Source: Escherichia coli
GTDB lineage: Bacteria > Pseudomonadota > Gammaproteobacteria > Enterobacterales > Enterobacteriaceae
Assembly: GCF_013122565.1 (NCBI RefSeq)
Contig: NZ_CP053258.1
Length of the DNA: 64,000 nt
Direction: 5' to 3' (one strand)
The number at the start of each line of letters is the position of its first letter. Within the stretch, counting starts at the first letter, position 1. The translations under genes were made by a program, and so were the position numbers. Shown piece after piece: positions 26,866 to 63,177 of the stretch. The notes beneath the pieces are model-generated. The model did no database searches. It was not told the origin of the DNA and was given only the letters and a program-made list of their open reading frames with translations.

Positions 26866-27795
26866 TTACTTCTCTTTCCCGCGCCCATGCATCTCCTGAA
26901 ACAATTTACCGACCTCAACAAAATAATCCGTCAGCGAGTTGATCACGACCTGTACCTTCAGCGGCAGTTTATCTTTTTCGGTATACAACGCATAAACCGG
27001 GCGTGGATCTGACTGGTAACGCGGCAGCAGGATCTCCAGCTCCCCACGATTGATCTCGTTGATCACCCACATCAGCGGCACGTAGGCGATCCCGGCACCC
27101 GCCGTCAGCCAGCGCACCAGCGTCATCGGATCATTAGTCACAAATCTTCCTTGTGGGATCAGGCGAGTCGAGATCCCTTCCGGTGCGATCAGTTCAAATT
27201 CATTGTCGGGCCGCACGCTGTATTCAAGCCATGAATGACTACTCAAATCGGCGGGTTTTTCCGGTATGCCGTATTGTGTGAGATAGCTTTTCGCGGCGCA
27301 CACCACCATCGGCATCGCGCCAAGACGGCGGGAAAACAGGCTGGAATCCTGCAACGCGCCGACGCGGATCACCACATCCAGACCATCGGCAATCAGGTCG
27401 GGGGCAGGAATTCCGGTAACCAGATTGACGCTCAAACCTGGGTATTCTTTCAGCATTTTTGCTGTCAGCCCGGCGAGAACATTTTGTGCCATAGTTGAAG
27501 AACAGCCAATGCGCAGCGTCCCGATGGGGGTGTTATTGAAGGCATACAGTTGCTCATGAACATCCTGCACTTCATGAAGCATACGACGGCAGCCCTGGTA
27601 GTAAATTCTACCGGCTTCGGTCAGGCCAATGCTGCGTGTGCTACGGTTTAACAGCTTTACCTGCAACTCATCTTCCAGTTTTGACACCGTCTGACTGATG
27701 GACGAAACGCTCATCTGTAGCTGTCTGGCGGCGGCGGTAAAAGAGCCAAATTCAACTACTTTGGCAAACACCGACATGCGTTTTAGTCGTTCCAT
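26866..27795 (-). CDS. aaeR: LysR-family regulator AaeR
   Basis: 309-aa LysR-type regulator (N-terminal HTH) divergent from aaeXAB. Confidence 0.9.
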   Translation of the reverse strand: MERLKRMSVFAKVVEFGSFTAAARQLQMSVSSISQTVSKLEDELQVKLLNRSTRSIGLTEAGRIYYQGCRRMLHEVQDVHEQLYAFNNTPIGTLRIGCSSTMAQNVLAGLTAKMLKEYPGLSVNLVTGIPAPDLIADGLDVVIRVGALQDSSLFSRRLGAMPMVVCAAKSYLTQYGIPEKPADLSSHSWLEYSVRPDNEFELIAPEGISTRLIPQGRFVTNDPMTLVRWLTAGAGIAYVPLMWVINEINRGELEILLPRYQSDPRPVYALYTEKDKLPLKVQVVINSLTDYFVEVGKLFQEMHGRGKEK

Positions 27796-60486: not shown

Positions 60487-61211
60487 GTAAAAGCCGCTTA
60501 ACGGTGTTTAGTTTCGTTCGCCGTTTTCTTTTGCGGTTAATGGTTGTCCTCGCCGTTTTCTGGGGCGGGGGCATCGCGTTGTTTAGCGTTGCGCCTGTTC
60601 CCTTCTCAGCGGTAATGGTCGAGCGACAGGTCAGCGCCTGGCTGCATGGCAATTTTCGTTACGTGGCACATTCTGACTGGGTCAGTATGGATCAAATCTC
60701 GCCGTGGATGGGACTGGCGGTGATTGCCGCAGAAGATCAGAAATTTCCTGAGCACTGGGGCTTTGATGTCGCTTCCATTGAGAAAGCCCTGGCGCACAAT
60801 GAGCGCAATGAAAACCGTATTCGCGGTGCTTCAACGATTTCTCAACAGACAGCCAAAAATCTCTTTTTATGGGATGGGCGTAGCTGGGTTCGAAAAGGGC
60901 TGGAAGCCGGATTAACGCTGGGGATAGAAACTGTCTGGAGCAAAAAGCGTATCCTGACGGTTTACCTGAATATCGCCGAATTTGGCGACGGTGTGTTTGG
61001 CGTCGAAGCTGCGGCACAACGTTATTTCCACAAACCCGCGAGCAAACTTACCCGATCGGAAGCTGCCTTACTGGCAGCTGTATTACCTAATCCACTTCGT
61101 TTCAAAGTCTCCGCGCCATCGGGCTACGTGCGCAGCCGTCAGGCGTGGATTTTACGGCAGATGTATCAGTTAGGCGGTGAGCCGTTTATGCAACAACACC
61201 AGCTGGATTAA
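60483..61211 (+). CDS. mtgA: Monofunctional peptidoglycan glycosyltransferase
   Basis: 242-aa ORF with N-terminal TM and transglycosylase motifs ([14 protein letters not shown]); overlaps the elbB stop. Confidence 0.9.
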
Positions 61212-61840
61212 GCTTCGCGCGAAGCGAGGGCCAGCGTTTTGCTCTCACGAGGTTGCAGATCTTTCTGCAGGGCAATAGCCAGCGCCGGTTGGGCGATAAA
61301 TCGTTTCCACAACCGCTCTTGCTTACGCAGACAACACCACTTTGACCAGGTCGCCAGTGGAATCAATGTGCTTTCACCAATGTTGTCGCAGACAACGGGG
61401 ATAACCTCTGACTCACTAATGCGGTGACAGAGGATATTCTGCGGCTTCAGCGACATCGTCACGATACGGTTATCCTGCAAATAACACTTCAGATGTTTCA
61501 GTAACTGGCGCAGTTGTGCAACGTCTTCTTCGTAACGGCATTGTTCAGCAAATTCGGTCAGCGTAATGGAGGGCTTGCCGTCAAAATCGGCAATCACATC
61601 ATAAACATAACCGGTTCCGCAATCCGTCTCGACGGTACCGTGATAGCGCGGTATTCCACTCCAGTCTTTTAACCGGCGACCAAGATGCGCGTAGTACTTT
61701 AACTCACGACGGATCTCTTTATCGCCACCATCGCCACGATGGTAGACAATCTTGATACAGCGTTGGGCATCTTCCGGATGCGCATAACATTTCCGATGTC
61801 TTCCGGTGCCCAGGGGACTTTGTTCAGATAAGCGAATCAT
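61208..61840 (-). CDS. yrbL: PhoP-regulated protein YrbL
   Basis: 210-aa product [24 protein letters not shown]...; AGGAG RBS; track ORF 19 codons longer. Confidence 0.85.
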
Positions 61841-61890
61841 GCCATCTCCTGGAAATATTTTCTGACGATCTCCAGTATGGTCGATTAACT

Positions 61891-61907
61891 TAAACAAAAC
61901 CTAAACA
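61891..61907 (-). promoter_or_regulatory. PhoP box (direct repeat TGTTTA-N5-TGTTTA) upstream of yrbL
   Basis: Minus strand reads TGTTTAGGTTTTGTTTA, a perfect hexamer direct repeat with 5-nt spacer about 50 bp upstream of the yrbL start. Confidence 0.65.
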
Positions 61908-62053
61908 ATGCCTCTTAAGGTTTTCTTAAGGTTCTTCTGAAAGTGAAAAGCGCACAAAATGTACAAATGACGTTGATTGAGAACGATTTCAGTACGTGAT
62001 TTTCTTATTGTCGGGGGGAGTTTGAAGGGAGTTGTATGTCAAAGTGATGAAGA

Positions 62054-62326
62054 TTAATCTTCATCAAAACCAGAATTAAAGAGGGCGATAACGGCGGCCA
62101 GTGCTTCCTCTTCCTGTGGACCGGTCGCTTCAACTTCAATCTGCCGTCCTTTGGCAGAATCCAACATCAGCAGCGCAATAACGCTGTTGGCTTCAGCCTC
62201 GGTGCCTTCGTCATTACGTAACAGCACTTCAGCGTCAAAACCCTGCATTAATTCAAACAGCTTCATTGCAGGCCGGGCATGCATGCCCAGCTTGTTTGTG
62301 ATTTCAACAGTTTGCTTGACGGTCAT
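62054..62326 (-). CDS. npr: Phosphocarrier protein NPr (PTS-Ntr)
   Basis: 90-aa HPr-like ORF with active-site His in GMHARPA. Confidence 0.9.
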
Positions 62327-63177
62327 GGTTTACGTTTTTCCAGCGTACGATGGCGTGACTGGACGTTTTTACCGCGCGAGCGGAAGTAGTCTGCCAGTTG
62401 CTCTGCAATATACACCGAACGGTGCTTCCCGCCGGTACAACCAATGGCGACCGTCAAGTAGCTACGGTTGTTGGTTTCCAGCATAGGTAACCATAGCTCA
62501 AGATAGCTTCGCGTCTGGTAGATAAAATTGTGTACTTCTGTGTGGCGGTCGAGGAACGCGGCGACAGGCTTATCAAGACCTGTCATTGGACGCAGTTTCG
62601 GATCCCAGTGCGGGTTCGGCAAGAAGCGCACGTCAAAGACGTAATCTGCATCGATAGGGATACCGTGTTTGAAGCCGAAAGACTCAAAGACCATTGTCAG
62701 TTCGCGTTCACGTTTACCCAGCAGACGGGTACGCAGCATTTCTGCCAGCTCGTGAACGGACATTTCTGAGGTATCGACAATCAGATCCGCTCGCGAACGC
62801 AGAGGCTCCAGCAGATCGCTTTCTTTGTCGATAGCACTTTCCAGCGACAGGTTTTTGCTGGAAAGCGGATGCAGTCGGCGCGTGTCACTGTAACGACGAA
62901 TTAAGGTATTACGGTCGGCATCCAGGAACAGTAGTTGCGGTGAGAAAGCGTCAGGCAGGTTACTCATCGCCTGTTCGAATATTTCTGGTGACTCCGGCAT
63001 ATTACGAACATCAATGCTGACGGCGGCAGAAATCTCGCGATCGGCCAGGGTTCGAGCCAGATCGGGTAACAACACTACGGGAAGGTTATCCACGCAGTAA
63101 AAACCCATATCTTCCAGCGCACGCAGGGCGACAGATTTACCTGAACCTGAACGTCCGCTGACGATCATCAGTACCAT
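62323..63177 (-). CDS. rapZ: RNase adaptor protein RapZ (YhbJ)
   Basis: 284-aa ORF with N-terminal Walker A GRSGSGKS; overlaps npr start. Confidence 0.95.

Follow-up and report, generated by a model that had tools for sequence, protein, structure and literature searches.

Whether a short direct repeat recognised from sequence marks a working regulatory site is the question raised by the 64,000-nt window of Escherichia coli DNA analysed here (the whole stretch, contig NZ_CP053258.1), which carries two copies of TGTTTA in tandem at 61891-61907, ahead of the gene yrbL. With a high degree of confidence, and with no observation to the contrary, this repeat is the PhoP box of a PhoP-dependent E. 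coli yrbL promoter. The sequence, geometry and conservation described below come from this analysis, and PhoP binding and dependence, together with repression by PmrA, are taken from published work in Salmonella, Shigella and E. coli. The yrbL PhoP box, its geometry to the -10 hexamer and the co-regulation by PmrA are already published, and yrbL is a textbook example of a gene in the ancestral PhoP regulon. What is mildly new is descriptive, namely the frequencies of the box variants in 5,425 genomes, the reading of the PmrA box on the opposite strand and a conserved block further upstream. The locus also serves as a positive control, in which an experimentally validated transcription factor site was recognised, and correctly placed, with nothing but the sequence to go by.

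The window belongs to the E. coli chromosome and runs opposite to K-12, with the gene order rpoN-hpf-ptsN-rapZ-npr, then yrbL, then the convergent mtgA-elbB-arcB. The npr-yrbL intergenic sequence is the same as that of K-12 MG1655 (NC_000913.3), where the box is found at 3,348,385-3,348,401 and the yrbL ATG at 3,348,452. The gene and its ribosome-binding site are placed as follows.

61208 to 61840, minus strand: yrbL coding sequence, 210 aa, protein-kinase-like.
61846 to 61850, minus strand: Shine-Dalgarno sequence AGGAG, 5 nt ahead of the ATG.

The ATG (61840-61838, minus strand) matches the start annotated in RefSeq, which names the product of this gene downstream of the box 'PhoP regulatory network protein YrbL', and the Pfam family PF10707 (YrbL-PhoP_reg) matches residues 2-185 counted from this ATG with E = 1e-66. 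Within the promoter alignment described below, GGAGAT is kept across the Escherichia and Citrobacter sequences. A 229-aa ORF that would start from a TTG at 61897, inside the box itself, was set aside as a product of mechanical ORF calling, because the ATG at 61840 has the strong AGGAG, residue 2 counted from that ATG is where the Pfam domain begins, and length changes in the upstream sequence (33 vs 34 nt) shift the frame between species. Residues 1-129 of YrbL, 97% identical to the protein of E. coli, were also encountered on a contig of 420 bp that bears the label Tannerella forsythia ATCC 43037 (NZ_JUET01000135.1), and the most likely source of YrbL in that assembly is contamination with E. 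coli.

The repeat lies between npr and yrbL.

61891 to 61907, minus strand: PhoP box TGTTTA-GGTTT-TGTTTA, in direct orientation towards yrbL and overlapping the -35 position.

The plus strand reads TAAACAAAACCTAAACA at these positions and the minus strand TGTTTAGGTTTTGTTTA. The original prediction had described TGTTTA-GGTTT-TGTTTA on the minus strand, about 50 bp from the yrbL start, as a match to the PhoP direct-repeat consensus. The sequence agrees with it letter for letter, the distance between box and ATG is exactly 50 nt, and the match to the consensus is real, with TGTTTA in both half-sites and an N5 spacer. The distal half-site occupies 61907-61902, the spacer GGTTT 61901-61897 and the proximal half-site 61896-61891, and the box as a whole fits (T/G)GTTTA-N5-(T/G)GTTTA at 12/12 consensus positions. 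The half-sites are in direct orientation, since the yrbL coding strand carries 5'-TGTTTA ahead of both the -10 hexamer CATACT and the ATG. A repeat search found the site independently, as two tandem 11-nt units TTGTTTARGTT that are identical at 10/11 positions.

Against a chance expectation obtained from 100 dinucleotide-preserving shuffles of the window, the single match to TGTTTA-N5-TGTTTA on both strands of the 64 kb compares with 0.01 expected. Scaled up from 0.01 per 64 kb, a whole genome of 4.6 Mb would hold about 0.7 perfect matches by chance, so that the match to the box is indecisive when taken alone and it is position, orientation, spacing and conservation that carry the case. Relaxing the pattern to KGTTTA-N5-KGTTTA with at most one mismatch gave one extra match in the window, at 26982-26998, where 0.79 were expected; it was rejected as a second PhoP box, being at chance level and inside a 309-aa coding ORF.

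The geometry of the promoter is defined by three further elements.

61914 to 61930, plus strand: PmrA/BasR box CTTAAG-GTTTT-CTTAAG, lying 6 nt ahead of the PhoP box.
61874 to 61879, minus strand: -10 hexamer CATACT, 11 nt downstream of the PhoP box and invariant in 15/15 aligned sequences.
61865 to 61871, minus strand: putative transcription start zone, carried over through the alignment from the S1-mapped +1 of Salmonella.

Read along the gene strand, the elements follow one another as CTTAAG-AAAAC-CTTAAG (61930-61914), 6 nt, the PhoP box, 11 nt, CATACT, 33 nt that include the Shine-Dalgarno sequence, and the ATG. The 11 nt between box and CATACT, AGTTAATCGAC, are within the 11-12 nt typical of architecture I PhoP promoters. 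The hexamer 18 nt from CATACT is TAGGTT, which as a -35 element has four mismatches (PMC3335776, Table 2). A consensus scan of 61600-62400 found no sigma-70 consensus promoter, as is expected of an activator-dependent promoter in which the -35 element is replaced, and this result is not evidence against a promoter at this site.

Where transcription begins can be narrowed down by comparison with Salmonella, in which the distance from the -10 hexamer of yrbL to +1 is 2 nt and the leader is 32 nt, and most of the other promoters in the same table have +1 at 5-7 nt after the -10 (PMC3335776, Table 2). The Salmonella +1 is thus unusually close to CATACT, which suggests a slight error in one of the two, the mapped +1 or the -10 assignment. 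The equivalent position in the window is the A at 61871, which would give a leader of 31 nt, and the usual 6-8 nt from the -10 would put the start at 61867-61865; because CATACT is invariant, the true start is expected at 61871-61865. The start site of E. coli yrbL itself was reportedly mapped by S1 by Minagawa in 2003, as cited in later papers. In the S1-mapped layout of Salmonella the repeat precedes +1 and covers the -35 region (PMC3335776), which is where the original prediction would have it.

The element upstream of the PhoP box matches CTTAAK-N5-CTTAAK exactly over 61914-61930, the PmrA box having been defined as 'CTTAAG ... XTTAAT' 5 bp apart (PMC3973317) or as 'XTTAAY repeats' (PMC10570014). 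Its orientation is ambiguous in E. coli since CTTAAG is palindromic. In E. albertii, Citrobacter and Salmonella, the plus strand (opposite yrbL) reads CTTAAG-GTTTT-CTTAAT, and the presence of CTTAAT on that strand in other genera argues that the PmrA box points in the direction opposite to yrbL, as would suit a site for a repressor. The repeat search lengthens the unit of this box to TCTTAAGGTT, present twice on the plus strand. A PmrA footprint on E. coli yrbL is said, in later papers, to have been obtained by Zwir in 2005. From start to start, the PhoP and PmrA boxes are 23 nt apart in the window, and a distance of ~24 bp between the two sites is given for the E. coli and Salmonella yrbL promoters (PMC2681069). 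Repression by PmrA is stated for E. coli yrbL and predicted for Salmonella in one report (PMC3335776, citing Zwir 2005), and PmrA repression of yrbL is stated in two others (PMC2681069; PMC4196223). In iron-adapted E. coli B, yrbL was repeatedly down where basR, eptA and arn were up, an association that is correlative (PMC13405929). The two boxes also form a 19-nt inverted repeat (61887-61905 vs 61915-61933) that is 79% complementary and has a shared GGTTTT spacer; the two are related OmpR-family sites in divergent orientation, and the pairing may be a coincidence.

Conservation of these elements was assessed in 15 aligned promoters, those of the window, of three divergent E. coli strains, of six further Escherichia lineages (E. 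whittamii and E. albertii among them), of four Citrobacter and of S. enterica subsp. arizonae. The genome contig scan for orthologous promoters gave close relatives only (Escherichia, Citrobacter and S. arizonae). From the -10 hexamer outwards, the following was found.

-10 hexamer CATACT: 6/6 columns invariant, length constant.
[quoted passage not shown]
PhoP half-sites: 4/6 columns invariant in each, length constant.
Gap between the PmrA and PhoP boxes: 0/6 columns invariant, 6 nt long in 14/15 promoters and 7 nt in one.
PmrA-type box: 14/17 columns invariant, length constant.

Elements that are kept at fixed distances with drifting sequence in between are the signature of a functional promoter, and after the -10 hexamer the PmrA box, with its 14/17 invariant columns, is the best-conserved multi-base element in it. 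In the PhoP box the invariant cores are GTT.A in the first half-site and TTTA in the second, and the variation is mostly at hexamer position 1 (T or C), with the proximal half-site varying at position 2 as well (TATTTA in S. arizonae and CATTTA in three Citrobacter). The box of Escherichia sp. L009 reads CGTTGA-GGTTT-CGTTTA. Since half-site positions vary in this way between species, a perfect match is not required and is not what selection maintains.

The yrbL promoter is present in 5,425/5,426 complete E. coli genomes, and box haplotypes were counted in them by exact 71-nt searches, in which three mutually exclusive classes make up 98.6% of genomes. The haplotype of the window and of K-12, TGTTTA-GGTTT-TGTTTA, is found in 3,313 genomes (61%), TGTTTA-GATTT-CGTTTA in 1,191 (22%), including strains MS1170 and 729_270514_x_12, which are both of poultry origin, and TGTTTA-GGTTT-CGTTTA in 847 (~16%), which include an O157:H7 genome. 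In window coordinates the polymorphic box positions are 61896 and 61900. The box had been called perfect in the original prediction, which holds for this strain and for K-12, but ~38% of complete E. coli genomes, and all three of the aligned variant strains, have CGTTTA as the proximal half-site (C at 61896). In strain Ecol_AZ161 (NZ_CP019012.1), the element ISEc23 (IS66 family) is inserted within the yrbL -10 hexamer with an 8-bp target duplication, GACCATAC (L005 1471-1510, L019 2670-2700), such that CATACT still adjoins yrbL and the PhoP and PmrA boxes are ~2.7 kb away. Through this insertion yrbL is naturally uncoupled from control by PhoP, in 1/5,426 genomes.

One more conserved element is found further upstream.

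61947 to 61966, minus strand: invariant block TTGTACATTTTGTGCGCTTT, farther upstream than the PmrA box.

This block, in which 18/20 positions are invariant in 10/10 sequences from Escherichia, Citrobacter and Salmonella, contains the palindrome TGTACA and occurs once in the window, and the remainder of the npr-yrbL spacer is unalignable across the same 10 sequences. The block gave no promoter-like match, and an Rfam search of 61700-62200 returned only a sub-threshold match to a snoRNA, attributed to chance. Comparison with the consensus sequences of CRP, FNR, TyrR, sigma-54, marbox and OmpR/RstA justified no assignment. The block does contain a half-site-like resemblance, TACATTTTG, to the RstA and OmpR boxes. 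It is conceivable, and we put it forward as a tentative and rather doubtful combination, that the T/C polymorphism at 61896 tunes PhoP affinity and that the block at 61947-61966 binds a third, as yet undescribed yrbL regulator. If this is true, E. coli lineages with T or C at 61896 could differ in how strongly or how early yrbL is induced, and the main reading of the box stands whether the tuning or the third-regulator idea holds.

The biochemical case for PhoP at this promoter comes from close relatives. In Salmonella, Zwir et al. 2012 (PMC3335776) list yrbL as an architecture I promoter whose one PhoP box, TCGTTTAGGTTTTGTTTAA, is directly oriented and 11 nt from the -10 hexamer CATACT (PMC3335776, Tables 1 and 2), with TAGGTT as the -35 surrogate at an 18-nt spacer and with a single S1 start that is active in the wild type at low Mg2+ and gone in a phoP mutant (PMC3335776). 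Architecture I promoters are assigned there to class II, a point demonstrated with mgtA, and the yrbL box is counted among the experimentally determined boxes in a study that reports PhoP-P footprints on 15 promoters (PMC3335776); Salmonella yrbL would appear to be one of these 15. It is also the first PhoP target transcribed upon induction in Salmonella (PMC4196223). In Shigella flexneri the PhoP site of yrbL is given as tTGTTTAggtttTGTTTAa (Lin et al. 2018, PMC5775216), a 19-mer identical to the window sequence, and within the literature searched this is the only paper in which the exact 17-mer is in print. PhoP-P shifts the Shigella yrbL promoter fragment in EMSA, and deletion of phoPQ leaves yrbL at 0.02 by microarray and at 0.07 by qRT-PCR, with the DNase I footprints of the same paper being those of yoaE, shf and mgtA, not yrbL (PMC5775216). 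An E. coli yrbL reporter answers to optogenetically controlled PhoP, with the lowest sensitivity among four promoters (PMC13215669), and yrbL is unmentioned in Perez et al. 2009 (PMC2650801). The status of yrbL as a PhoPQ-activated gene, which the original prediction had given as known, is therefore supported by published data from both Salmonella and Shigella, the published PhoP site being identical in Shigella (PMC5775216) and an experimentally determined box in Salmonella (PMC3335776).

Other explanations of the locus can be weighed against these results. Transcription of yrbL might come mainly from read-through of the co-directional rpoN-hpf-ptsN-rapZ-npr operon, with the PhoP box playing a minor part, and the spacer offers some grounds for this. 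The npr gene is on the same strand as yrbL and ends 146 nt upstream of the box, a search of the npr-yrbL interval gave no intrinsic terminator or terminator-like site on the gene strand, and the spacer RNA does not fold significantly (z = -1.36), its only hairpin being a 9-bp A+U-rich one over the npr stop codon (62045-62064, minus strand; GAUGAAGAU-UAAU-CUUCAUC) that is without a U tract. It is nevertheless very unlikely, since yrbL depends on phoPQ by ~50-fold in Shigella, where it stands at 0.02-0.07 in the deletion (PMC5775216), the single S1 start in Salmonella is phoP-dependent (PMC3335776), and read-through leaves the conserved box, its spacing and the -10 hexamer unexplained.

That the repeat should match a short A+T-rich consensus by chance, without regulatory function, is less probable still and close to negligible. 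The extrapolated ~0.7 perfect matches per E. coli genome would allow for such an event somewhere, but this one is intergenic, correctly oriented, at the exact distance to an invariant -10 hexamer and at fixed spacing across three genera, and yrbL is experimentally PhoP-bound and PhoP-dependent, so that the published EMSA, footprint and expression data already contradict the idea. Just as slight is the prospect that another regulator of the OmpR/PhoB family chiefly uses the site and that the dependence on PhoP is indirect. Members of this family bind similar tandem repeats, and the adjoining PmrA box is a related repeat of 11-bp period that is paired to the PhoP box within the 79% complementary inverted repeat; TGTTTA, however, is the PhoP consensus and is unlike the PmrA half-site CTTAAG/CTTAAT, purified PhoP-P binds the Shigella fragment (PMC5775216), and the Salmonella yrbL PhoP box is among those that were experimentally determined (PMC3335776).

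As the PhoP box of the yrbL promoter, the repeat would act in the following way. Low Mg2+, acid pH or antimicrobial peptides would be sensed by PhoQ, leading to the phosphorylation of PhoP, and PhoP-P would then bind the two TGTTTA hexamers, one helical turn apart, as a head-to-tail dimer. The box would stand in for the -35 element, and given this placement 11 nt from CATACT, PhoP most likely activates in the class II manner, with direct recruitment of the sigma-70 holoenzyme, by analogy with mgtA. Transcription would begin a few nt after CATACT to give a leader of ~25-31 nt with the strong AGGAG ribosome-binding site, and the PmrA/BasR box 6 nt further upstream would provide a repressing input.

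Compared with known systems, the yrbL site of Shigella flexneri 2a 301 has no difference at the site level, its 19-mer being identical. The orthologous gene of Salmonella enterica likewise has a single direct PhoP box with the spacer GGTTT and the proximal half-site TGTTTA, 11 nt to CATACT, TAGGTT as the -35 surrogate, a PmrA box ~23-24 bp upstream (start to start) and a short leader (32 nt there vs 31 nt here if the +1 is equivalent). It differs in the distal half-site, which is CGTTTA there and TGTTTA here, in the sequences of the 11-nt spacer and the leader, and in the distance from the -10 to the ATG (34 nt there, 33 nt here). The canonical class II PhoP promoters, those of mgtA and phoP in E. 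coli and Salmonella, also have one direct (T/G)GTTTA-N5-(T/G)GTTTA box, which replaces the -35 element one helical turn upstream of the -10, but their box-to-(-10) distance is 12 nt rather than the 11 nt of yrbL and they are without an adjacent PmrA box, and mgtA, unlike yrbL, has a 264-nt regulatory leader. The combination of an activating PhoP box with a nearby repressing PmrA box is shared with the 'bi-fan' promoter of pmrD (PMC2681069), where in Salmonella the two boxes are ~38 bp apart, compared with ~24 bp in Salmonella yrbL (PMC2681069) and 23 nt here.
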